From: an uncultured archaeon
Lineage (GTDB): Archaea; Iainarchaeota; Iainarchaeia; Iainarchaeales; CSSED10-239
Reading direction: 5' to 3'
DNA length: 32,000 bases
NCBI GenBank assembly: GCA_964468895.1
Contig: CAYXWT010000003.1
Coordinates: 5,157-37,156 of the forward strand
Notes under the pieces: generated by a model
What the model saw: only the letters and a program-made list of their open reading frames with translations
Database searches by the model: none
Told to the model about the DNA's origin: nothing
In this document: positions 2,803 through 31,601 of the stretch, piece by piece
How the letters are laid out: every line of letters starts with the position of its first letter
Position numbering within the stretch: position 1 is the stretch's first letter
Program-made: the position numbers and the translations under genes

Positions 2803-3297
2803 TTAATTGCAAGTTTGTATTTCTTTAAGTTTTAATTCAATTTGTTCAGAATCTTGATTTTTAAGATTTTCTATATATTGATTCCAATATATTTTTTTAG
2901 GTGTAGGATATATTGCTTCAAATTGCTTAATTAATTCTTTTTTAGAATTATTATAAGCTTGTATTTTATTTTTTAAATTATAAGTTATACATCTATTATT
3001 ATTTTCAAAATTAATTTGATTTCTAAGATTTAAAGAATCTTTGTAAAGATATGCATATTCTGTAATTGGGTCTGTAAATTCATCTAATCTTAATTGTTGA
3101 AGATCCAAAATATAATTGATATAATTATCTGGTACTAATTTTTCTGAATAAACATTGTAATAGCTGTTAGTAAATTCAATTGTTTCTATTTTGTTAGAAT
3201 TGTAGTTATTATAAATTAAATATAAAAAAAATAATGCTATTAATAGTACAATTATAAATCCTAGAAAATTTGATTTCTTTTTTTTTTGTTTTTTCAT
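2803..3297 (-). CDS. hypothetical N-terminally membrane-anchored protein
   Basis: MKKQKKKKSNFLGFIIVLLIALFFLYLIY: a basic N-terminus followed by one hydrophobic helix. It starts 9 nt downstream of bud32 on the same strand. No recognisable domain. Confidence 0.5.
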   Translation of the reverse strand: MKKQKKKKSNFLGFIIVLLIALFFLYLIYNNYNSNKIETIEFTNSYYNVYSEKLVPDNYINYILDLQQLRLDEFTDPITEYAYLYKDSLNLRNQINFENNNRCITYNLKNKIQAYNNSKKELIKQFEAIYPTPKKIYWNQYIENLKNQDSEQIELKLKEIQTCN

Positions 3298-10664: not shown

Positions 10665-11174
10665 ATGAAACTGGTAATTAGTGATGCATCAACTTTAATA
10701 CTTTTAACAAAATCAGAACTTATATTGCCGTTACTATCTAAATTTAAAATTATTATACCTAATGAAGTATATTTAGAAATATTAAAAGGTAAGGAAAAAG
10801 GAAAACAAGATGCTTATCAAATAGATTATTTGGTTAAACAAAATAAAATTCTAATAAAACAACCTAAAGAGGAAACAGTAAGTTTAATAAACAATTTATG
10901 TGTTTTAGATATTGGAGAACTTTATGCTATTGCTTTAGCAAAAGATCTTAATTTAAGTATATTAATTGATGATAAAAAAGGCATTAATACTTGTAATTTA
11001 TTTAATATTTATTTTTTAACTGCTTTACAAATCTTAAAGTTATTATATAAACATAAATTTGTTAGTAAAGCAAAAGCATTAAATTCATTATATAATTTAA
11101 AGAAAAATGGACGTTATAAAGAAAATGAAGTAAAAATAATTTATGATTTTTTAAAAGGTGGTTATTATGAATAA
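10665..11174 (+). CDS. PIN-like nuclease-fold protein (DUF3368 family), putative toxin
   Basis: MKLVISDASTLILL (N-terminal acidic residue after a beta strand), LDIGELYAIALAK and LIDDKKG match the acidic-residue layout of DUF3368/PIN-like proteins. It is paired with a UPF0175-type partner. Confidence 0.6.
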   Translation: MKLVISDASTLILLTKSELILPLLSKFKIIIPNEVYLEILKGKEKGKQDAYQIDYLVKQNKILIKQPKEETVSLINNLCVLDIGELYAIALAKDLNLSILIDDKKGINTCNLFNIYFLTALQILKLLYKHKFVSKAKALNSLYNLKKNGRYKENEVKIIYDFLKGGYYE

Positions 11175-11550
11175 AAAATATTCTTCAATAAGTTTAAGAT
11201 TAGAAAATGATTTGGTAGAAAAAATAGAACAAGTTTCTAGATTAGAAGATATTGAAAAATCAGTAATTTATAGACAATCTATAAAGAAAGGTATAAAAGA
11301 AATATTAAAAGAGTTAGCAATTAAATTGTATGTTGAAGAAAAACTAACAATATCAGGTGCTGCAAGACTATCTGATATGTATATAGGAGATTTTATGGAG
11401 CTTCTAGGAAAAAGAGGTATTAAAAATGAACTTCCTGATGAATATATGAGAATGGCAGATAAGAATGCGGAAAAACTATTTAAAAAAATTAACAAACTAA
11501 ATTCTCCTAAAAAGAAAGTCATTTATAAGGTTAATAAATACAAAAAATAA
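11167..11550 (+). CDS. putative antitoxin: RHH/CopG-like N-terminus fused to a UPF0175-like domain
   Basis: ISLRLENDLVEKIEQVSRLEDIEKSVIYRQSIKKGI (RHH-like strand-helix-helix) followed by LAIKLYVEEKLTISGAARLSDMYIGDFMELLGKRGI (UPF0175 signature). The ATG at 11167 overlaps the upstream stop (ATGAATAA). Confidence 0.55.
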   Translation: MNKKYSSISLRLENDLVEKIEQVSRLEDIEKSVIYRQSIKKGIKEILKELAIKLYVEEKLTISGAARLSDMYIGDFMELLGKRGIKNELPDEYMRMADKNAEKLFKKINKLNSPKKKVIYKVNKYKK

Positions 11551-20388: not shown

Positions 20389-20997
20389 TTAAAAAAACAC
20401 AAAAAAGAATGGAATTGCAATTGTTATTGCCCAAATTATTGGATTCCAAGCAATGACTTTTCTTCCATCTAGTGGACCTATTGGTAAAAGATTGAAAAAT
20501 GCAATCCAAAGATTAATTTGTATTCCTAGTGCTGCAATGTAATTAGGTAGTATTGTTATTGATAATATAAAAAACAATAATGCCATAATTATATTTATTA
20601 ATGGGCCTGCTAAAGATATAATACCATTTTCTCTTACACTAATTTGTTTTCCGTAAATGTAAACTGCTCCTGGAGCTATAAATATAACTCCTAAACTAAG
20701 AGACAAAATTACTGCAAAAGCAACATAATGCCACCACATTACAAATCTTGCTTTTGCTTTGTAATATATTGCAGTATATTTATGAGCTAATTCATGACAA
20801 ATAAAGGATGTTCCTGTGATAATTAAACTTATTATAAAAAATATTATAAATTCACTTAAACTATATTCTATAGTTCCTTTAAATATTCCTATTAAGTTTC
20901 CTCTTAAACTTAAATTGTTAAGAAGTATTGTAAAACATATTGATATACCAACCCAGGAAATTAATAAATCATTTATTTCTGTTTTTTTAAATTTCAT
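20389..20997 (-). CDS. site-2 protease family (peptidase M50) membrane metalloprotease
   Basis: HExxH within a TM helix (CHELAHKY) and the second motif FNLLPIGPLDGRKV. Polytopic membrane protein. Confidence 0.8.
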   Translation of the reverse strand: MKFKKTEINDLLISWVGISICFTILLNNLSLRGNLIGIFKGTIEYSLSEFIIFFIISLIITGTSFICHELAHKYTAIYYKAKARFVMWWHYVAFAVILSLSLGVIFIAPGAVYIYGKQISVRENGIISLAGPLINIIMALLFFILSITILPNYIAALGIQINLWIAFFNLLPIGPLDGRKVIAWNPIIWAITIAIPFFFVFF

Positions 20998-22416: not shown

Positions 22417-23526
22417 ATGCCTGCAAATGCAAGTTATGAGTATGGTTTGGCTCAAAAGAAATATGATGAAGCTAATACTAGTACAGACAAATTAGTTGCA
22501 CTTCAAGAGATGTTATCTACTGCCCCTAATCATAAGGGTGCAGAAAATTTAAGAAAAGATATTAGTAGAAAGATTTCTTCTCTTAAAAATAAAATGGAAA
22601 AGCAAACAGCAAATCTAAAGAAATCTGGTTATACTTTAAATGTAAAAAAAGATGGTGATGGTCAAGTAGTTATAGTAGGTCTAACAAATTCTGGAAAAAG
22701 TACTTTTTTAAAAGAATATACTAATGCAAAACCTTTGATTGCAAATTATCCTTATACTACTGTTAGGCCAGAGATTGGTACTTTAAATTATGGTGGTGCT
22801 TTAATACAATTAATAGAAGTACCTTCTTTTTTGAGTTCTGGAGAACTTGGTTCTCAAATACATTCTATGATAAGGGTTGCTGATTTAGTAATATTTACTA
22901 TTAGAGATGATGATCTAGAAGAATTAGATGGCATTATTGATTTATTAGAATCTAAAGATATATTTATTACTAAAAAAAAACCTAAAATAAATATTGTAAG
23001 AAGTAAATTTTTAGGTATTTCTTTTGTAAATGAACAAAATTTAGTAGATGATAAAAATAAAGTTTTGGATTTATTAAGAGATTCAGGCTATAAATCTCAC
23101 ACATTTATATTAAATCAAAAAACAAAAATTAAAGATATTTTATTATCTATAAATCCTAGAGCTTGTTTTATACCTTCTATTTGTGTATCTATGCCTTTTA
23201 AATCTGAAATTACAAATCTAAAATCAATTTATAGATCTGTTCCAATTTATTTATTTAAAGATAAATCTAAAGTTTGTACAAAAATATTTGCAGAATTAGA
23301 TGAAATAATTGTTTATACTAAAAAACCTGGACAAAAAGCTGATACTCATGAACCATTAGTTTTAGATAAAGGTTCTACTGTTTTAGATGCAGCTATGGAA
23401 ATTCATAAAACTATTTATAAAAATCTAAAATCGGCAAAAGTTTGGGGTAGTACTAAATATAAGGGGCAAAATGTTTCTAAAAAATATGTTCTTCAAAACC
23501 AAGATGTTGTTGAATTTATGATTTAA
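22417..23526 (+). CDS. DRG-family GTPase-like protein with C-terminal TGS domain (G3/G4 motifs degenerate)
   Basis: P-loop VIVGLTNSGKSTF, G2 context ANYPYTTVRPEIG, and C-terminal TGS-like LVLDKGSTVLDAAMEIHKTIYKNLKSAKVWGSTKYKGQNVSKKYVLQNQDVVEF. DxxG is replaced by IEVPSF, and NKxD by CVSMPFKS. Confidence 0.75.
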   Translation: MPANASYEYGLAQKKYDEANTSTDKLVALQEMLSTAPNHKGAENLRKDISRKISSLKNKMEKQTANLKKSGYTLNVKKDGDGQVVIVGLTNSGKSTFLKEYTNAKPLIANYPYTTVRPEIGTLNYGGALIQLIEVPSFLSSGELGSQIHSMIRVADLVIFTIRDDDLEELDGIIDLLESKDIFITKKKPKINIVRSKFLGISFVNEQNLVDDKNKVLDLLRDSGYKSHTFILNQKTKIKDILLSINPRACFIPSICVSMPFKSEITNLKSIYRSVPIYLFKDKSKVCTKIFAELDEIIVYTKKPGQKADTHEPLVLDKGSTVLDAAMEIHKTIYKNLKSAKVWGSTKYKGQNVSKKYVLQNQDVVEFMI

Positions 23527-23626: not shown

Positions 23627-24508
23627 ATGCCCAAGAAAAAAAAAAAATATCAAGATAGTAAGTTTGAACTAGAACTTTATTCTTTATTTATACCTATAAC
23701 TAAACATTTAGATATGAAAGATTTAGAAAAAAAATTAATGCAATCCGATTGTGTAGAAGATGTTGAATATTATCTTTCCAAATATATGTTTTATGCGTTT
23801 TTTGTATCTATTATGTTTTTAATTTTAGGTGTTGTAATTTTAGCTAATTTAGGAAAAGGTGAATTATTTTTTAACTTAATTATGTTTTGTTTTGGTGTAG
23901 CTGTTGTTGTAATAATTTATTCTTTTGTTAAACCATATTTAGATGTAGGTCAAAAGGTATCTAGTATTAAAAATAATTTAGCACTTACAATTCTAAGTAT
24001 GTCTAGTATTGCAGAAAGTGGAGCTCCACCAGAAGCTATGTTTTTAATATCTAATAATGAAACTGAAACTCCGTATATTAGTAAAGAATTCAAAAAGATT
24101 ACTAATTATATGGATAATTTAGGTTTATCTTTGTTAGAAGCAATTGATCATGTTTGTGAAAAAACACCTTCTATTGAACTAAGAAAGTTTTTAATAGAAC
24201 TTAAATCTAATATTGAATCTGGAGGTTCAATATCTGAATTTATGAAAAAGAAAGCAGAACATGCTCAGTTTCAATACCATTTAATGTTAAATAATATGAA
24301 TAAAAAAGCAGAAACTTTTGGAGATATTTATTCTGCAGTAGTTATAGCAGGTCCTTTATTTTTATTTTCTACAGTTATGTTATTAGGTATGATTGGTGGT
24401 GGTGGGTTTGCTGGTGTTGGACTTCAAACTTTATTAGTAGTTGGTATATTTTTAGTAATACCTATAGTAAATATTATATTTTTGGTAATTTTACAAATGG
24501 TATCTTAA
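23627..24508 (+). CDS. type IV pilus/archaellum platform protein, T2SSF-domain half 1 (FlaJ/TadB-like)
   Basis: TM helices flank a cytoplasmic T2SSF-like domain (LTILSMSSIAESGAPPEAMFLISN...LSLLEAIDHVCEKTPSIELRKFLIELKSNIESGGSISEFM), followed by more TM helices. Confidence 0.75.
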   Translation: MPKKKKKYQDSKFELELYSLFIPITKHLDMKDLEKKLMQSDCVEDVEYYLSKYMFYAFFVSIMFLILGVVILANLGKGELFFNLIMFCFGVAVVVIIYSFVKPYLDVGQKVSSIKNNLALTILSMSSIAESGAPPEAMFLISNNETETPYISKEFKKITNYMDNLGLSLLEAIDHVCEKTPSIELRKFLIELKSNIESGGSISEFMKKKAEHAQFQYHLMLNNMNKKAETFGDIYSAVVIAGPLFLFSTVMLLGMIGGGGFAGVGLQTLLVVGIFLVIPIVNIIFLVILQMVS

Positions 24509-24529
24509 ATTTTAAATAAAAGAAATATT

Positions 24530-25351
24530 ATGAATAAAAGATTAAAATATATTTTGGATTTTGCAATTAAAGGTATGATTGGTTCAGTTATACTTCTAAT
24601 ACTTTTATTACAAACCAAATTAGTTATTTTTGCAATTTTTCCTTTATTGATATCTGTAGGTGTTGCTTCAATAGCTTATACTAATAAAATTAAATCTTAT
24701 GAAGAAAACTTATTTATATTCATTGAAGATTTAAAAGATCTTCTTCAAGGTGGTATGAATATAGTAACTTCAATGGAAATTGTTTGTGAGCATGATTATG
24801 GATCTTTAAATGCTGAACTAACAAGATTAGCTGCTCAAATTAAAATAGGTGTACCTTTTGAAAAAGCTTTAGTAAATATTTTTAATGAAATAGAAAGTCC
24901 TATGTTTGGTAAAGTTGCACAAGTAATATCTGAAAGTACAAAGTATGGTGGTAATTTAACTAAAATATTTTCTTCAGTTTCTAATTATGTTAAAAACATT
25001 AATGAAATGTCTGAAGAAAGAAAGTCTAAAACTTTTTCAACTATATTTTCTTCATATTTTATGTTTTTTGTTTTTATAGGAATTATTTTAATTATACAAA
25101 TTGTTTTTTTACCAATGCTTTCTTCTAATGAGTTATCTTCTGTTACTGGTGGAGGTAGTGATAACTCAATGGAAGATATTAATTTTAATACGTACTTTTT
25201 GTATTTATTATTAGTTCAAGGTTCTTTTGCAGGTCCTGTAATTGGTAAAATTTCAGAAGGTAGTGCAATAGCAGGTATAAAACATACAGTCATATTATTA
25301 TCCATATCTGTGCCTTTATATGTTTTAGTATCTTTGTTTTTTATAATTTAA
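24530..25351 (+). CDS. type IV pilus/archaellum platform protein, T2SSF-domain half 2 (FlaJ/TadC-like)
   Basis: LKDLLQGGMNIVTSMEIVCEHDYGSLNAELTRLAAQIKIGVPFEKALVNIFNEIESPMFGKVAQVISESTKYGGNLTKIF is T2SSF-like and flanked by TM helices. It starts 21 nt after the previous gene. Confidence 0.75.
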   Translation: MNKRLKYILDFAIKGMIGSVILLILLLQTKLVIFAIFPLLISVGVASIAYTNKIKSYEENLFIFIEDLKDLLQGGMNIVTSMEIVCEHDYGSLNAELTRLAAQIKIGVPFEKALVNIFNEIESPMFGKVAQVISESTKYGGNLTKIFSSVSNYVKNINEMSEERKSKTFSTIFSSYFMFFVFIGIILIIQIVFLPMLSSNELSSVTGGGSDNSMEDINFNTYFLYLLLVQGSFAGPVIGKISEGSAIAGIKHTVILLSISVPLYVLVSLFFII

Positions 25352-25474
25352 ATTAAAAAATAAATTGGTTTTTAAATAAGTTGTATTTATATATTTATTG
25401 GTAATATATTGTATTATCTTGTATATATTATATAGAAATTTAATTTAAAGCTTGAAAATTGTTAGTGAAATATT

Positions 25475-25960
25475 ATGTCTAAAATAACACATGTTAAGAA
25501 ATCATTTAAAAAAAGAGCAGTATCACCATTAATTGCAACCATATTACTTGTAGCTGTATCTTTGTCTTTGGCAGGTATTTTATATTCATGGTCTTCACAG
25601 AATGCAAAAGAAACTACATCTAATCTTTCTGAGACAACAACACAGTGGGGTAATTGTAGTTCAGTTAATTTGTATATAGAAGATTGTACATATAATTCTG
25701 ATACTGGTGTTAGTTTAATTTTATATGATGATTCTCAAATAGACATTGACAATAACCTAAGTTTAATTGTAATCGATACAAATAGTGAAATAGCAACAAC
25801 TAGTTTTGAACCTAGTTTTTCTAATTCAGTTATGAGTGTTCGAACAGAAAACTTTTCTAATAGTGATGATTTTCATGATTTAGGTGAACCTATACGAAAA
25901 ATTAAGATATTTGTTGAAAGTTGCCCAGATAGAGCTGCAACAACAACAATTTGTAACTAG
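25475..25960 (+). CDS. archaeal type IV pilin (class III signal peptide, DUF1628/Pilin_N type), paralogue 1
   Basis: MSKITHVKKSFKKRA|VSPLIATILLVAVSLSLAGILYSW: a basic leader, small residue at -1, and SPLIA hydrophobic helix. Four Cys: NCSSVNLYIEDC and SCPDRAATTTIC. Confidence 0.8.
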   Translation: MSKITHVKKSFKKRAVSPLIATILLVAVSLSLAGILYSWSSQNAKETTSNLSETTTQWGNCSSVNLYIEDCTYNSDTGVSLILYDDSQIDIDNNLSLIVIDTNSEIATTSFEPSFSNSVMSVRTENFSNSDDFHDLGEPIRKIKIFVESCPDRAATTTICN

Positions 25961-25995
25961 TCTTTTTAAAAAAAAAAATTAAATTAATTTTATCG

Positions 25996-26002
25996 AAGGA
26001 GG
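25996..26002 (+). promoter_or_regulatory. strong Shine-Dalgarno AAGGAGG upstream of pilin paralogue 2
   Basis: AAGGAGG at 25996-26002, 8 nt before the ATG at 26011. Pilins 1 and 3 lack a comparable motif. Confidence 0.6.
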
Positions 26003-26010
26003 AATTAAAA

Positions 26011-26502
26011 ATGAATTCAAAAAAAGCAATATCTCCATTAATAGCAACTATTCTTTTAGTAGTTGTAGCAGTTGTATTAGTAACAATTGTTTTAAGTTGG
26101 AGTAAAACATTTTCAAATGAAAGTTTAGATGTAGCAAGTAATGTAGTAGATAATAGTTGTACTGATATGATCGGTTCTCTATATATAAGCGATTGTCAAA
26201 TATTAAGTGATGGTAATGTTACTTTCTTTTTAACAAACTCAAGTAATGATTATACATATCCTGACGGAGATGGAGTTTTGAAAATTAATTTAACTGATGG
26301 TGTTGGAAATATAGACTCTCAAGTTGATGTGAATAGTAGTCTAAATCACATTACTGCAGGATGGGGTAGTTTTGGACCTGGAGAAGTTGAATCTATTAAA
26401 ATAGATGTTGATAGTGTTGAAGACTCAAATCCTATTTACGTAGAAGTTAAATCTGTAGCTTGTCCTTCAGATGCATATGCAACAGCTGTATGTAGAGAAT
26501 AA
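26011..26502 (+). CDS. archaeal type IV pilin, paralogue 2 (likely the most highly translated)
   Basis: MNSKKA|ISPLIATILLVVVAVVLVTIVLSWS. Four Cys: SCTDMIGSLYISDC and ACPSDAYATAVC. Several N-x-S/T sequons. Confidence 0.8.
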   Translation: MNSKKAISPLIATILLVVVAVVLVTIVLSWSKTFSNESLDVASNVVDNSCTDMIGSLYISDCQILSDGNVTFFLTNSSNDYTYPDGDGVLKINLTDGVGNIDSQVDVNSSLNHITAGWGSFGPGEVESIKIDVDSVEDSNPIYVEVKSVACPSDAYATAVCRE

Positions 26503-26523
26503 ATATATAAGATTTGTTAAAAT

Positions 26524-26979
26524 ATGAGTTTAGTCAAACTAAAAGCTGTTTCACCGTTGATAGCAGTTGTATTATTAGTGATTGTTGCTGTAGCAATAGT
26601 TACTATACTGTTATCTTGGTCACAGAATTATGTTCAAAGAAGTACAGCATCAGTAGATGATGCTATTGATACAAGTTGTATAGGTGTAGATATATCTGTA
26701 CTTAGCTGTGATTATAATTCTGTGTCTGATGAATTTACTTTTATAATGGTTAATTCTGGTAATATAGATTTTACTACTAATAATACTTTTTCTTTAATAT
26801 TAATAGATTCAGATAATAATCTTACTAATAAATCTAACATTATTGATTCTGTGGCTTTTAATAAAGGTGAATCTCAAAAAGTAGTAATTGAAGATTATGA
26901 AGATGCAGAAACACCTATAAAAATGGAAATTAGAAGTAGTTCTTGTAGTGGCTTTTTTGAAACCAAAACTTGTCATTAA
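26524..26979 (+). CDS. archaeal type IV pilin, paralogue 3
   Basis: MSLVKLKA|VSPLIAVVLLVIVAVAIVTILLSWS. Four Cys: SCIGVDISVLSC and SCSGFFETKTC. Confidence 0.8.
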   Translation: MSLVKLKAVSPLIAVVLLVIVAVAIVTILLSWSQNYVQRSTASVDDAIDTSCIGVDISVLSCDYNSVSDEFTFIMVNSGNIDFTTNNTFSLILIDSDNNLTNKSNIIDSVAFNKGESQKVVIEDYEDAETPIKMEIRSSSCSGFFETKTCH

Positions 26980-27479
26980 ATCTTTTCTATTTTTATCTTT
27001 ATTATTTTTTTTTGATTATCTATAATTGCAAGAATATATTTAGCATGTATTGAATTTGCTAATCTTTCAGATTTAATTATTTCTTTCATTGTATCTTTAT
27101 ATGTTCTTTTTACATCTATGACTTCTTGAGTATGAGTATGTTCTTTACTATTTTTATAAACTCTAAAATCAAAACCAAATAAAGCACCATCTTTAATTAT
27201 TTTCCCATTATCTCTATATTCTTTAAATACAATATATTTATCTTCAAAGTTTTTAATTTTTTTATTACAAATATCTATCATTTTTGTAATATTTATTATA
27301 GAATTTAGTTTATCTTTAATTTTAATTTTTTTCTTTTCAAGTAAATAAAAGCTTTCAAATAAATCTAAATAATAATCTAAATTTACTTTGTATCCAAAGC
27401 CTTTAGATTTTAATTTACTTTTTAAAGTATTATTTTCTATTTTACAATTATTACTATTATTATTAAGTATTACAAACAT
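26976..27479 (-). CDS. endA: tRNA-splicing endonuclease subunit (EndA family)
   Basis: C-terminal catalytic domain pattern YIVFKEYRDNGKIIKDGALFGFDFRVYKNSKEHTHTQEVIDV and ANSIHAKYILAI (Tyr/His/Lys triad contexts). 167 aa. Confidence 0.7.
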   Translation of the reverse strand: MFVILNNNSNNCKIENNTLKSKLKSKGFGYKVNLDYYLDLFESFYLLEKKKIKIKDKLNSIINITKMIDICNKKIKNFEDKYIVFKEYRDNGKIIKDGALFGFDFRVYKNSKEHTHTQEVIDVKRTYKDTMKEIIKSERLANSIHAKYILAIIDNQKKIIKIKIEKI

Positions 27480-27502
27480 ATTTTTTCAACCAATTATTTA
27501 TT

Positions 27503-27790
27503 TTATTTATATAATGTGAACAAATTTCTATCTACTCCATAAAATAGGCCAATTCTAACACCTGCATCAATCCATCCATATGCATATGAATATGATGCTA
27601 AAGCTTTAACAAAATCTTCTTTTTCTTCTAAGTATTTTCCATCATTAAGATAATTAGTAGCCATTTCTAAATAATTATCTGCAATTTCTTTTAAGAAAGA
27701 TGTGTTTTTAATATTTATTTCAATAGTTGAAAGTGCTTTTTCAAGTATGTTTTTATATTTTAAACAATATTCTCTGCAATCTGTATTCAT
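27503..27790 (-). CDS. DUF357-family small helical protein
   Basis: ATNYLNDGKYLEEKEDFVKALASYSYAYGWIDAGVRIGLF matches the DUF357 signature (Y..GWLDAG). The start overlaps the dph5 3' end by 38 nt. Confidence 0.6.
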   Translation of the reverse strand: MNTDCREYCLKYKNILEKALSTIEINIKNTSFLKEIADNYLEMATNYLNDGKYLEEKEDFVKALASYSYAYGWIDAGVRIGLFYGVDRNLFTLYK

Positions 27791-28511
27791 CTATAGCCAC
27801 CTTTTCAAATTCATTTAATTCTCCACAAATAATTAATGATTGAGGATATTTATTACAATTAATTTTATTATAATCTTTAAATTTAAATGAAATAATTTCT
27901 TGTTCATCTGATCCCATTGCAGCAATTAGAACACATTCTTTTTCAGAAAGTATTTTTTCTTTATTAATATCAATTTCGGAAAGTAATTCACATGCTTCTT
28001 TTATATTCATAAGTCTATTTTCATTAATTTTAATATCTAATAAACAAAGTGTATGTGCTTTTATTTTAAGATTATCTAATATCATATTATAGAAACTAGT
28101 TGGTTTATAGTTTTTACTATGATATACAATACTTGTAGTTTTTCCAAATTTATATTCAAATAACCCACAAATTCCTTTGTAATTAAATATTGAAATTCCA
28201 AGTATTATTTTTAAAGGTATTTTTCTTTTTTTAGCTTCTTGAACTACTGTATAATGTGTAGTTGCTGATAAGGGTGAACCTATTACTAATAATGCTGAAT
28301 TATCCTTTAAATATAAAAGATCTTGTTCTAGTTCTTTTCTATTTAACAATGTTATTTTTTTGGAAATGATTTCTTCTAGTTCGCTAATATCCCCAGAACT
28401 AAATTTATTTGTATAATTATCAATATATATATCTTCACAATCTTTAATAGCATTTATTGCTTCTAAAGTAATTTGTGTAGTATTTAATCCAATTCCTATT
28501 ATATAAAACAT
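27753..28511 (-). CDS. dph5: diphthine synthase (Dph5)
   Basis: MFYIIGIGL... tetrapyrrole-methylase-fold N-terminus and LVIGSPLSATTH (the GDPxxATTH equivalent). The ATG at 28511 matches the usual N-terminus; the track start is 28520. Confidence 0.85.
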   Translation of the reverse strand: MFYIIGIGLNTTQITLEAINAIKDCEDIYIDNYTNKFSSGDISELEEIISKKITLLNRKELEQDLLYLKDNSALLVIGSPLSATTHYTVVQEAKKRKIPLKIILGISIFNYKGICGLFEYKFGKTTSIVYHSKNYKPTSFYNMILDNLKIKAHTLCLLDIKINENRLMNIKEACELLSEIDINKEKILSEKECVLIAAMGSDEQEIISFKFKDYNKINCNKYPQSLIICGELNEFEKVAIDEYRLQRILFKI

Positions 28512-28543
28512 TTTTATCACATTTTTAGGATTTATTAATTAAT

Positions 28544-28924
28544 TTAATAATATACTCCTATTTCTATATATATTTCTTTATTAGAACTTTTAATATACTT
28601 TATGGAATTAGAAATTAATCTTGTTTTAGATGTGTTTTTTAAATTTTCATTAATAATTAGTTTATTGTTATTTATTTTTATGTATGCTTTATTATTTGGA
28701 AACAGTTTTAGATAATTTTTTTTTAATATTTTTAAATCTTCTATATTTAGTTTTTGACAACTTAATAAAATATCATTTATTTTTTGAGTAATTATAATCT
28801 CTGTAATGTCATCTATATCATTATAATTATTGTAGATATAATTTTCCTTTAAAATAAAAATCAAAGATATTATTAGTATAAGTGCGAATATACTATCTAT
28901 TATCAAAACAAATCCTTTATTCAC
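28544..28924 (-). CDS. pilin-like small protein D (class III signal peptide-like)
   Basis: MNKG|FVLIIDSIFALILIISLIFIL: K-G then a hydrophobic helix with an acidic residue at +6. GTG start overlaps the stop of the upstream gene (GTGAATAA). Confidence 0.45.
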   Translation of the reverse strand: MNKGFVLIIDSIFALILIISLIFILKENYIYNNYNDIDDITEIIITQKINDILLSCQKLNIEDLKILKKNYLKLFPNNKAYIKINNNKLIINENLKNTSKTRLISNSIKYIKSSNKEIYIEIGVYY

Positions 28925-29333
28925 TAAAACAAACCTCTATAACTTTAAAAATATTGTTTTCTATAATTCCTCTATTATAACACGTAAGGGATTGTGTGTT
29001 TGAATTCAAATAAACTAAATTAGAGTTTATTTTAATATTATTAATATTTTTGAATTTTAAAATGTTATTAATTTTACTAATATCAATTTCATTACTATAG
29101 CATCTGTTCTTCTTTAATGCTAAATTGGCACTATCTTTTATAATATTATCAACTAAGAGTATTTGTTCAAGTATTTTGAGGTCTTTGTTTTTATATTTGT
29201 ATTTCAAATTATATTTTGAAAATACATTTAAACTTAAAAATATAATAAGAATTATTATAAGTAAAACTATAAATACCTCAAATATAAATATTTGTGCATT
29301 TCTATTTTTTAGGAATTGTTTTTTTATATTCAT
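28917..29333 (-). CDS. pilin-like small protein C (class III signal peptide-like)
   Basis: MNIKKQFLKNRNA|QIFIFEVFIVLLIIILIIF: small residue then Q at +1, E at +6, and a long hydrophobic helix. Confidence 0.45.
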   Translation of the reverse strand: MNIKKQFLKNRNAQIFIFEVFIVLLIIILIIFLSLNVFSKYNLKYKYKNKDLKILEQILLVDNIIKDSANLALKKNRCYSNEIDISKINNILKFKNINNIKINSNLVYLNSNTQSLTCYNRGIIENNIFKVIEVCFSE

Positions 29334-29547
29334 AAATACTATTTTTTATAAAATATTTTTCTTTTAAATAATTTAATTTTGTAATATATTTTATTTCAGA
29401 ATCTTTTGAATTATATTTATCTTGTAAATTAACTTCTATGTTTATATAAAAAAAAAGAATTGTTATGATTATTAATATATATAAAATAAATTCTATAGAT
29501 AGTTGTGCTTTTCTAGTTTTGATTTTATTTTTAATTAATGCAAACAT
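29302..29547 (-). CDS. pilin-like small protein B with QxSxEF-type class III signal peptide (DUF361-like)
   Basis: MFALIKNKIKTRKA|QLSIEFILYILIIITILFF: K-A then QLSIEF (Q+1, S+3, E+5, F+6). ATG at 29547; the track start 29556 is TTG. Confidence 0.5.
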   Translation of the reverse strand: MFALIKNKIKTRKAQLSIEFILYILIIITILFFYINIEVNLQDKYNSKDSEIKYITKLNYLKEKYFIKNSIYEYKKTIPKK

Positions 29548-30052
29548 ATTTTTCAACAGTGTAATTTTTTGGAAATAAATAGCTTAGTTCTAAATTATTA
29601 TGTTTAATTTTTAATTTTAAATATAAATTTTTATTTATAGAATTAGTTATAATATATCTTTTAACTAATAAGTTATCATTAGCTTTGTATACTATAACTT
29701 TAGTAATATTATCAAGCTTTGATAAATTTACTAATTCTTCTTTTTTAGTATTTACATTTTGTATATAAAAAAAGTTATTTTTACTTTTAAAGTAATTTAT
29801 TAGATTAACATTTATACTTTCCTTTAAAATTAAAGGATTATCAATTTCATTATTAAGATTAATCTCAATAATCTTATTTATATTAAGTATATTGTTTTCT
29901 TTTTCTAAATCTAGATAACTTACAATGCTTATATCTTTATAATCTATAAATGTGTTTTTTATATTACTGTTTTTAATTAAACTAATTATAAATATAGATA
30001 ATAGCAAAATAGATATTATGCTTACAAATGCTTTTTTGTTTTTAAAAAACAT
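29531..30052 (-). CDS. pilin-like small protein A (class III signal peptide-like)
   Basis: MFFKNKKA|FVSIISILLLSIFIISLI: a basic leader, Ala at -1, and a hydrophobic helix. First gene of a four-gene overlapping run. Confidence 0.45.
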   Translation of the reverse strand: MFFKNKKAFVSIISILLLSIFIISLIKNSNIKNTFIDYKDISIVSYLDLEKENNILNINKIIEINLNNEIDNPLILKESINVNLINYFKSKNNFFYIQNVNTKKEELVNLSKLDNITKVIVYKANDNLLVKRYIITNSINKNLYLKLKIKHNNLELSYLFPKNYTVEKYVCIN

Positions 30053-30161
30053 AGTATTTGTTGTATATTTAGTATTTATTTAACTTTGTTTTACTTTTTT
30101 TGTAATTTTTATTTTAATAAATAATAAAATATAAGAAAATAAGAAAAAGATGAAATAGAAA

Positions 30162-30350
30162 TTAACATCTTTGAAGTAACAAATCATCATTTTTTCTAAA
30201 ATCTATTTCTCCAAGTATATCTACTAACATTTTTGTTTGATCTCTATTAAGTGATTTTGTAAGATCTATTCTTTTGAACAATGTATTTTTTAATTTTAAT
30301 AGTAAAGTTGTTTGAACATTTACTAAATCTTTTCTATCTAATATTTGCAT
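30162..30350 (-). CDS. hypothetical 62-aa soluble protein
   Basis: The ATG at 30350 is preceded by GAGGTG (plus-strand CACCTC 30359-30364) with 8-nt spacing. No TM segment and no recognisable motif. Confidence 0.45.
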   Translation of the reverse strand: MQILDRKDLVNVQTTLLLKLKNTLFKRIDLTKSLNRDQTKMLVDILGEIDFRKNDDLLLQRC

Positions 30351-30521
30351 AAGTTATACACCTCTTTTTTTTAAAAACTTAATAATATTATAAGGTATTT
30401 AAAAGTGGAGTCATTTTTTGAACAGTAAGTGGCCGTAGCAAATATACATAATTATCTACCAATATTATATATTTATAATAACATCCATTTACTATTTGTA
30501 TGTACTTTAAAGTGATTTTAT

Positions 30522-31601
30522 TTGAAAAAAAATATATTTGCTGATAGAAATAAAAACCTAAAATCTATTTTTAAAGATGAAACTATTTTCTATTCAGAAT
30601 TTATTCCTGAGAAAGTAAATTGTAGAGACATACAAGTCAAAGAGCTTACCTATTTATTAGAACCTATTAATAATAAAAAAAAAGCAAGTAATATTTTATT
30701 ATATGGTCCGCCAGGAACTGGAAAAACAATGATGTCTAAGTTTGTTTTAAATGAATTAATAAATTATACTAAAAAAGCAAAATATATCATTATAAATGCA
30801 ATTCAAGATAATTCTAGAATGGCAATATATTCTAAAATTGCAACCTTATTTAAGTTACCACTTCCTAGAAGAGGACTTGCTGTAGATGAAATTATAGATA
30901 GAATTAAAGAAGAATTATCTAAGTGTGATTTTATACCTATAATAGTTATTGATGAAATTGATCAATTAGATTCTAAACAATGTTCTAATTTGTTATATGA
31001 TCTTACAAGAATTAATATTGATGATAAATATTTTTGTTTATTGTTAATTACAAATCATAAAGATTTTGTTTTAAAACTAGATCCTAGAACTAAAAGTTCT
31101 TTATTTTTAAATTCTATTGAATTTAATAAATATAGTCCTAAAGATCTTAAAGATATATTAAATCAAAGAATAAGCTTTGGTTTGATTCCAAATTCTATTA
31201 GTAGTGATTTAGTAGGATTTATTGCAGGTTATTCTTCAAGAAGAGGTGGAGATGCAAGGATTGCTATTGATCTACTATATAAATCAGCAAAAGAAAGTGA
31301 TAAGTGTGGCAATTTAGAGCTCACTAAGGATGTTATTTTGAGTTCTTCTAAGTCTATAGATTATATCAAAATTAATGAAAAAATAAATTATTTAGGAAAA
31401 GGAGAACTAAAATTACTTCATATTCTAGAAGATGGTATGTTAAGTACTGATATTTATTCTAAAAGTGAAATACCAGTACGTACTGTTAGAAGATATCTTT
31501 CAAATTTAGAAAAAGTAAATTTAATTAGATTTGAAAATATTAATTCTAATACCGGTAGAACTAGAAAATTATTTTTAAATTTTGATAAATCTATAATTTA
31601 A
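30522..31601 (+). CDS. cdc6: Orc1/Cdc6 replication initiator, paralogue 2 (shorter, more divergent)
   Basis: Walker [14 protein letters not shown], Walker B IVIDEIDQL, sensor-2 RGGDARIAIDLL, and C-terminal wH (VRTVRRYLSNLEKVNLIRF). Only a TTG start is available upstream of the Walker A. Confidence 0.85.
   Translation: MKKNIFADRNKNLKSIFKDETIFYSEFIPEKVNCRDIQVKELTYLLEPINNKKKASNILLYGPPGTGKTMMSKFVLNELINYTKKAKYIIINAIQDNSRMAIYSKIATLFKLPLPRRGLAVDEIIDRIKEELSKCDFIPIIVIDEIDQLDSKQCSNLLYDLTRINIDDKYFCLLLITNHKDFVLKLDPRTKSSLFLNSIEFNKYSPKDLKDILNQRISFGLIPNSISSDLVGFIAGYSSRRGGDARIAIDLLYKSAKESDKCGNLELTKDVILSSSKSIDYIKINEKINYLGKGELKLLHILEDGMLSTDIYSKSEIPVRTVRRYLSNLEKVNLIRFENINSNTGRTRKLFLNFDKSII

Follow-up and report, generated by a model that had tools for sequence, protein, structure and literature searches.

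A two-module type IV pilus locus of the Iainarchaeota with no assembly ATPase gene in its neighbourhood

What drives a type IV filament whose membrane platform and subunits are encoded close together, and beside which no gene for an assembly ATPase is found? This question is raised by positions 23,627 to 30,052 of a 32,000-nucleotide stretch of contig CAYXWT010000003.1 from an uncultured archaeon (the whole stretch is referred to below as the window). An initial annotation of the window described a type IV filament locus in two modules, namely two T2SSF-type membrane genes with three tandem pilins on the plus strand and four small open reading frames (ORFs) on the minus strand, separated by endA, DUF357 and dph5. 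Pfam, TIGR and ArlJ profiles agree with this description, and all nine ORFs of the pilus locus were verified at their coordinates (Table 1). Our analysis indicates that the region probably comprises the platform and subunit modules of a normal DPANN split-platform pilus of the Epd/Tad-like kind, the ATPase and prepilin peptidase of which would be encoded elsewhere in the chromosome.

The locus is a lineage-specific reorganization of a known system, and its one distinctive point, the lineage-wide uncoupling of the ATPase and platform genes, is real. A search by Walker A motif and tblastn found an ATPase gene within 10 kb in none of 17 informative Iainarchaeota loci. In sister DPANN lineages (Woese-, Pace-, Parv- and Nanoarchaeota; loci L033-L093, L216 and L217), by contrast, where homologous platforms (28-35% identity) occur in complete loci, a T2SSE ATPase (PF00437) of ~507 amino acids (aa) is encoded directly upstream of the platform in 39 of 45 informative cases. 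From these loci the identity of the missing partner is known.

The platform, the pilins and their conservation

The plus-strand module begins with the platform pair (23627-25351) and continues with the three archaeal pilins (25475-26979). The two platform genes are spaced by 21 nt and the products of both pass the Pfam cut-off for T2SSF. Because their matches cover successive halves of the ArlJ/FlaJ profile (together positions 10-539 of 555), the two genes are read as one PilC/FlaJ platform protein encoded in two parts. Orthologues of the N-terminal half occur in 19 Iainarchaeota loci with a ratio of nonsynonymous to synonymous substitution rates (dN/dS) of 0.07-0.19, and the C-terminal half gives 0.07-0.10; these ratios, like those below, come from the less saturated genome pairs and are rough since dS is near 1. 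For the C-terminal half, 62 clusters in the database show 57-87% identity; every one is single-domain, and those with a name are Diapherotrites or 'ainarchaeum'.

Two of the three pilins pass the 20-bit cut-off of TIGR02537 (archaellin/type IV pilin N-terminal domain), and weak UpsA and Pilin_N matches occur besides. Pilin 3 has orthologues in all relatives, and dN/dS for the pilins is 0.15-0.6. Pilin 1 is probably the main filament subunit. Across 19 species its mature residues 2-26 are nearly invariant, the remainder is ~50% identical and four cysteines are invariant. The profile of its orthologues aligns, from the predicted mature residue 1 onward, with residue 1 of Iho670 ('VSPVIATLLL') of the adhesion filament of Ignicoccus hospitalis (PDB 5kyh), the mature N-terminal helices comparing as SPLIATILLVAV versus SPVIATLLLILIAV. 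This alignment supports both the predicted cleavage site and the role of main subunit. The likeness covers the N-terminal ~45 residues only (E 0.0026), and the globular domains are unrelated by sequence.

The host is a DPANN archaeon of the Iainarchaeota (Diapherotrites). The window has a G+C content of ~22% and carries, besides housekeeping genes such as S3Ae, S15, NAC, Dus, SepF, ThiI, MnmA, NFACT, CDC48 and TatD, two Orc1/Cdc6 paralogues and a DRG-type GTPase. The loci of relatives were fetched, with up to 10 kb on each side, from ~20 Iainarchaeota/Diapherotrites genomes; the set includes a 688-kb metagenome contig, a 282-kb contig of a metagenome-assembled genome, a 671-kb contig and the closed chromosome of Candidatus Forterrea multitransposorum (L024). 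The synteny comparison proposed in the initial annotation reveals an order common to these ~20 genomes, which runs NFACT, CDC48, M50, TatD, methyltransferase, DRG, platform N-half, platform C-half and 3 to 5 tandem pilins, and then EndA, DUF357, dph5, the four small ORFs, an ORF of 51-64 aa, Orc1/Cdc6 and PCNA. Platform identity within the set is 59-87%. Because the same order recurs throughout the fetched relatives, the arrangement is a lineage trait and no accident of one contig. Judged by their substitution ratios, the genes of the locus are real and under purifying selection; since this applies to all its parts, the machinery is in use.

The genes between the two modules match tRNA_int_endo (1.6e-16), DUF357 (2.8e-26) and TP_methylase (5.5e-14), the last of which is presumably dph5-like. 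The EndA-DUF357-dph5 trio has an identical location in all relatives. It shares the strand of the four pilin-like ORFs, which it follows after 23 nt, and at its other end endA (26976-27479) converges with pilin 3, the two stops overlapping by 4 nt.

In two relatives (L011, 17979-19105; L027, 17755-18885) three further genes follow PCNA: a 171-aa HExxH membrane protein with a weak Peptidase_M50B match, a 143-aa KG↓QISLEY protein (the arrow marks predicted cleavage here and below) and a 62-aa Flp/EpdE-like pilin (KA↓QISAEM). The 62-aa protein, which has a weak PF04021 match, is found in L011 and L027 only, and the trio is not in L013 and L014, the closest relatives of the window.

Table 1. Features of the pilus locus and its immediate neighbours (window coordinates; arrows, predicted cleavage sites)
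Feature	Position	Strand	Characteristics
DRG/Rbg1-type GTPase with TGS domain	22417-23526	+	End-to-end alignment with Rbg1/DRG
Platform N-terminal half, 293 aa, TadB/EpdJ-like	23627-24508	+	Single T2SSF 7e-13; ArlJ/FlaJ profile positions 10-242 of 555
Platform C-terminal half, 273 aa, TadC/EpdK-like	24530-25351	+	Single T2SSF 1.4e-18; ArlJ positions 287-539 of 555
Pilin 1, 161 aa	25475-25960	+	KKRA↓VSPLIA; TIGR02537 31.1 bits; UpsA 4e-8
Pilin 2, 163 aa	26011-26502	+	KKA↓ISPLIA; TIGR02537 30.1 bits; paralogue of pilins 1 and 3
Pilin 3, 151 aa	26524-26979	+	KLKA↓VSPLIA; TIGR02537 16.3 bits (below cut-off); UpsA and Pilin_N matches weak
EndA, DUF357, dph5-like methylase	26976-28520	-	Pfam matches; housekeeping; between the two pilin modules
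Pilin-like protein d, 126 aa	28544-28924	-	NKG↓FVLIID, Asp at +6; no Pfam match; Asp10 invariant
Pilin-like protein c, 138 aa	28917-29333	-	RNA↓QIFIFE, acidic at +6; no Pfam match
Class III signal minor pilin, 84 aa (TTG 29556) or 81 aa (ATG 29547)	29302-29556	-	RKA↓QLSIEF, Glu at +5
Pilin-like protein a, 173 aa	29531-30052	-	KKA↓FVSI; no Pfam match; no acidic residue near N-terminus
Small soluble ORF, 62 aa	30162-30350	-	Precedes the four pilin-like genes; 13 relatives have a homologue of 51-64 aa in this place

The minus-strand pilin-like proteins

The minus-strand module (28544-30052) consists of four ORFs with class III signal-like N-termini, successive members of which overlap start to stop by 8-32 nt. 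The 84-aa product is the only one that approaches a Pfam model, reaching 20.5 bits with Class_IIIsignal (PF04021; cut-off 23.7). Among its 16 orthologues, nine match PF04021 (best E 1e-6), five match TadF weakly (best E only 0.0018) and Glu19 is invariant. In profile-profile comparison (hhalign), its family aligns with 77% probability to the 'QVWVET' pilin-like family that is encoded upstream of the ATPase in Nanoarchaeota-type loci; a PDB profile search with the family returned nothing meaningful. By these matches the 84-aa protein is a recognizable class III/TadF-like minor pilin. The profile search suggested in the initial annotation for all nine ORFs therefore gave a mixed outcome, with both platform genes and two of the three pilins recognized, the 84-aa ORF below the PF04021 cut-off and the remaining three ORFs without a match.

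These three are nonetheless conserved. The 173-aa protein has orthologues with a K-[GA]-F-x-S N-terminus in 17 loci (dN/dS 0.16-0.44); its single-sequence AlphaFold 2 model is uninformative (predicted local distance difference test score, pLDDT, 41). In L027 (14900-15391) its orthologue looks broken, consisting of an 80-aa ORF and a remnant, through a frameshift or an assembly error. The 138-aa protein keeps K-[AG]-Q...D/E in 17 orthologues, with an invariant Gln14. Of the four, the 126-aa protein shows the strongest conservation (41-50% identity to relatives; dN/dS 0.21-0.44); in its single-sequence model, which has a pLDDT of only 54, a long helix at the N-terminus leads into beta strands. 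The 138-aa and 126-aa families align with each other at 82.5% probability over 101 columns, and in the remaining pairs of pilin-like families the likeness is confined to the N-terminal 26-60 residues and of low probability.

Across the lineage the four proteins carry distinct N-terminal signatures: K-[GA]↓F-x-S in the ~167-aa protein, K-G↓Q-x-S-x-E-F with an invariant Glu in the ~80-aa protein, K-[AG]↓Q-x-x-x-x-D/E in the ~135-aa protein and K-G↓[QFI]-x-F-x-x-D with an invariant Asp in the ~125-aa protein. An acidic residue thus stands at +5 or +6 in three of the four. The initial annotation had allowed that these ORFs might not be conserved in relatives. A homologue of each is detectable in 17-19 related loci, and dN/dS values of 0.16-0.44 point to purifying selection.

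In an alternative that we consider unlikely, the four ORFs, or at least those three that match no Pfam family, have nothing to do with the filament and encode small membrane-anchored proteins whose genes accompany dph5, DUF357 and endA, the pilus locus being the plus-strand operon only. The 173-, 138- and 126-aa proteins do match no family, their likeness to pilin-like families lies mostly in the first 26-60 residues, their models are of low confidence, and the unit sits just upstream of the housekeeping genes on the same strand. However, the start-stop overlaps tie all four to one another and to a recognizable minor pilin, the unit always lies beside the platform and pilin operon, and the [KR]-[GA]↓[QF] motif and the hydrophobic helix are kept across 17-19 genomes while the remainder diverges, with the acidic +5/+6 residue invariant in three of the four. 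Moreover, a scan of every window ORF of at least 35 aa for class III-like N-termini returned the seven pilin and pilin-like genes, one ambiguous ORF (2803-3297) and two artefacts, so that such N-termini are, with that one ambiguous exception, otherwise absent from the window.

The small soluble ORF upstream of the four pilin-like genes (30162-30350) matches no Pfam family. It possibly belongs to the pilin-like unit, and its product could have a regulatory or accessory role. Beyond it an Orc1/Cdc6 gene (30522-31601) adjoins the pilin-like operon (intervening stretch 30052-30522). In the closed Forterrea genome, the cdc6 gene abutting the pilin-like operon marks the replication origin, which has been placed beside cdc6 (PMC5905446); the L024 record (CP045477.1 823861-839632) stops shortly beyond the small ORF that precedes the pilin-like genes. 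ORB-type (origin recognition box) repeats were sought at 30040-30540 of the window, and none was convincing. Elsewhere in the window (10665-11550, plus strand), a 169-aa ORF without a Pfam match, judged PIN-like by eye, overlaps the next gene, that of a UPF0175 protein, by 17 nt; the two are probably a toxin-antitoxin pair.

The ATPase and the prepilin peptidase

The statement of the initial annotation that the 32 kb encode neither an ATPase nor a prepilin peptidase holds. A profile search found no T2SSE or A24 family member among window ORFs of at least 70 aa, and tblastn with a DPANN pilus ATPase gave a best E of 5 in the window and the fetched DNA of the relatives. Nor do the relatives suggest an ordinary locus cut by the window edge with these genes just outside: those with long contigs have neither within 10 kb on either side.

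For the peptidase, the absence is unremarkable. PF01478 occurs neither among the window ORFs nor in the precomputed Pfam lists of L011-L013, and a GxGD-type motif scan of all fetched loci was negative. Prepilin peptidase genes are, though, normally unlinked to pilin loci, as for PibD in Sulfolobus and Haloferax and FlaK in Methanococcus, and they are likewise absent from the ATPase-containing DPANN loci examined; the missing linked peptidase is therefore no peculiarity of this locus. The two signal types noticed at the outset (A↓VSPLIA and A↓QLSIEF) do co-occur here, but they do not point to two peptidases. The ATPase-containing loci of Woese-, Pace- and Nanoarchaeota combine both types, A↓VSPLIA and G/A↓Q...E/D, and their co-occurrence is therefore ancestral for the family. 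M50-type metalloproteases encoded nearby (20389-20997, and the M50B-like gene of L011 and L027) were considered as substitute prepilin peptidases and rejected, proximity being all that speaks for them.

The search for the ATPase was extended to databases. With a Nanoarchaeota ATPase as query, the best 120 protein matches were all Nanoarchaeota and at least 69% identical, and none lay on the Iainarchaeota long contigs. An exhaustive comparison with 50% cluster representatives gave 150 ATPase representatives, with cluster names including Nanopusillus, Aenigmarchaeota, Thermoplasmatales and one 'Diapherotrites'. This last entry (P0270/P0353) has a canonical locus with an ATPase and two T2SSF genes in an organism of 42% GC; it was set aside as another lineage because its platforms are only ~25% identical to those of the window. 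In a codon-biased DNA pattern scan of metagenome contigs, the lowest-GC stand-alone ATPases among the matches listed were Nanopusillus/Nanobsidianus, and none of the ATPase loci listed had close homologues of the Iainarchaeota flanks. The supplements of the relevant papers contain nothing on Iainarchaeota. Indirect support for a motor encoded elsewhere comes from the literature. 'A secretion-related ATPase' is mentioned in the paper on the complete genome of Candidatus Forterrea, in which the locus likewise lacks the ATPase gene, and Candidatus Iainarchaeum andersonii and AR10 have been scored as having type IV pili (PMC8561730).

[quoted passage not shown] The motor, a hexameric PilB/FlaI-family ATPase, would dock on the two-protein platform at its cytoplasmic T2SSF domains and drive subunits from the membrane into the filament; the genes for both enzymes would lie elsewhere in the chromosome. 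Pilin 1 would provide the main subunit and pilins 2 and 3 alternative or minor ones, while the four translationally coupled pilin-like proteins, which we take to resemble the minor-pilin sets of bacterial systems, would prime or cap the filament as a priming/tip complex. By analogy, the likely function is adhesion to surfaces or other cells.

Several points weigh against this picture of a normal pilus with a distant motor. No ATPase of the lineage and no A24 peptidase occurs in the 344 kb that flank 21 related loci, and no Iainarchaeota ATPase is found on known long contigs in the database listings examined. The N-half of the window platform is ~140 aa shorter at its N-terminus than the ~430-aa N-half of Nanoarchaeota-type loci, and the lack of this cytoplasmic extension could mean an altered motor interface. 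On the subunit side, three of the four minus-strand proteins have no curated family match; the 173-, 138- and 126-aa proteins are labelled pilin-like only from their N-termini, the gene overlaps and weak profile-profile scores, and the structure models (pLDDT 54 and 41) are too poor to help.

The first of these points could be pressed further. That the lineage truly lacks a PilB/FlaI-type ATPase, and builds a static membrane-anchored pseudopilus or surface scaffold or powers its filament with some other nucleoside triphosphatase (NTPase), seems to us very improbable; we likewise give only a slight chance to a complete loss of that ATPase by the Iainarchaeota, in which the strongly conserved split platform, three pilins and four minor pilin-like proteins would be kept and a filament or pseudopilus assembled by an unrelated NTPase or with no canonical motor at all. 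The contrast between 0/17 and 39/45 loci and the shortened N-half would fit such a loss, and three ATPase homologues of DPANN archaea (P0246, P0278, P0288) seem to be catalytically dead, but the cytoplasmic T2SSF domains are intact and strongly conserved in both platform halves. No Iainarchaeota ATPase surfaced in any search, although the ATPase searches did not query these genomes directly, so that the failed find is uninformative; the secretion-related ATPase of the Forterrea paper also speaks against a loss. We know of no type IV filament that assembles without a PilB/FlaI-type ATPase.

The three homologues just mentioned are ~500 aa long and have a destroyed Walker A motif ('GKKDADKS', 'GKSSDVRNS' and 'GDSQSRKTS'), and are likely to be catalytically dead paralogues. 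Many other DPANN pilus ATPases (for example P0185, P0186, P0192 and P0197) are 1000-2100 aa long and match the 506-aa query in 2-4 stretches, which is consistent with the insertion of one to three inteins. In P0188 and P0217 the insertion lies directly after the 'FQGMAS' motif of the ATPase.

The only P-loop protein beside the platform, the DRG-like protein encoded just upstream, had been singled out for its degenerate G motifs, and this observation is confirmed: G1 and G2 are intact, G3 (DxxG) has become E-[LV]-P-[SA] and the G4 motif NKxD is missing. All 19 Iainarchaeota orthologues share the pattern at a dN/dS of ~0.1, which suggests a lineage-wide change of nucleotide specificity. These selected changes, and a position 70-105 bp upstream of the platform genes in nearly all relatives, would fit a recruitment of the protein by the platform as its NTPase. 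We regard such a recruitment as scarcely credible, however, since the protein aligns end to end, TGS domain included, with the ribosome-associated GTPase Rbg1/DRG, bears no similarity to secretion ATPases and lies in a flanking synteny made up of housekeeping genes generally. In Candidatus Forterrea, the genome of which is known as transposon-rich, an inserted 244-aa ORF on the opposite strand (L024 8250-8984, minus strand) separates the DRG-like gene from the platform N-half, and this speaks against a functional link between the two.

A rearranged member of a known family

The locus has its homologues in the sister DPANN lineages. In these, VSPVIAT-type pilins are followed by the 'KAQVWVETVIY' pilin-like gene, the ATPase, the ~430-aa N-half and the ~280-aa C-half, and then by two pilin-like genes ('RG↓LSHVE' and 'KG↓WIRIVE'), often archease and RtcB, and PKD-domain giant proteins. 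The window shares with Nanoarchaeota-type loci the homologous split platform, pilins of the 'G/A↓VSPVIAT' type and extra pilin-like genes with an acidic residue at +5, its 84-aa protein resembling the 'QVWVET' family. The order is different, in keeping with the non-standard organization noted in the initial annotation. Comparison with the sister loci indicates that the Iainarchaeota rearranged the locus: the ATPase gene was unlinked, with none for at least 10 kb around, the pilin genes were shifted to the downstream side of the platform, ~140 residues disappeared from the N-terminus of the N-half (293 aa versus ~430) and the minor-pilin genes came to lie on the opposite strand beyond the three housekeeping genes. 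The genes downstream also differ from the archease, RtcB and PKD giants of the sister loci. In both lineages, tRNA-splicing genes stand beside this pilus family (archease/RtcB in L033, L034, L040, L076, L216 and L217; EndA in the Iainarchaeota), perhaps by coincidence, perhaps as a relic of a former synteny.

The presence of two platform genes is not a novelty. It already defines the System 1/Epd-like loci of methanogens, Thermococcales and DPANN, that is, the EppA-dependent pili of Methanococcus maripaludis and relatives (Makarova, Koonin & Albers 2016, PMC4858521; bioRxiv 10.64898/2026.04.22.720090), and it also occurs in some DPANN 4A loci. DPANN pilus loci with unrecognizable pilins have been described, as has a subsystem, 4E, with split loci in which the pilins are far from the machinery. 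Like System 1/Epd, which has been reported in DPANN and encodes some of its pilins apart from the machinery, the window has a two-gene platform and multiple pilins that include a PF04021 class III type with Gln at +1 and Glu at +5. Unlike System 1/Epd, it has no ATPase in the locus and no EppA-type peptidase, and its putative main subunits resemble Pilin_N/Iho670 and possess a globular domain and four cysteines, whereas EpdE is short and Flp-like; the motif scan of window ORFs found no short Flp/EpdE-like pilin.

The bacterial Tad/Flp pilus (TadA/CpaF, TadB, TadC, Flp, TadE/F and TadV), which is regarded in the literature as derived from archaeal Epd-like systems, likewise has two separate single-T2SSF platform proteins, and its TadF model is the one matched weakly by orthologues of the 84-aa protein. 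In contrast to Tad, the window has no TadA-type ATPase or TadV in reach and no secretin or outer-membrane part, which an archaeon does not have. The general features of type IV filaments are present, namely a T2SSF platform and class III-signal subunits with a hydrophobic N-terminal helix.

The adjacency of ATPase and platform genes serves as an anchor both for comparative studies and for automated detectors of archaeal type IV filaments, and such detectors will under-call or mis-score a whole lineage of phylum rank whose ATPase and platform genes lie apart. The locus also provides a natural case for understanding how a split platform recruits a motor encoded elsewhere, with an N-half that is shortened relative to that of sister DPANN. 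If it were true that complete genomes of this lineage lack the ATPase, this would be a major surprise for the field. Whether the Iainarchaeota live freely or as symbionts is disputed, and the obvious candidates for their attachment structures are these seven conserved subunits at the cell surface.

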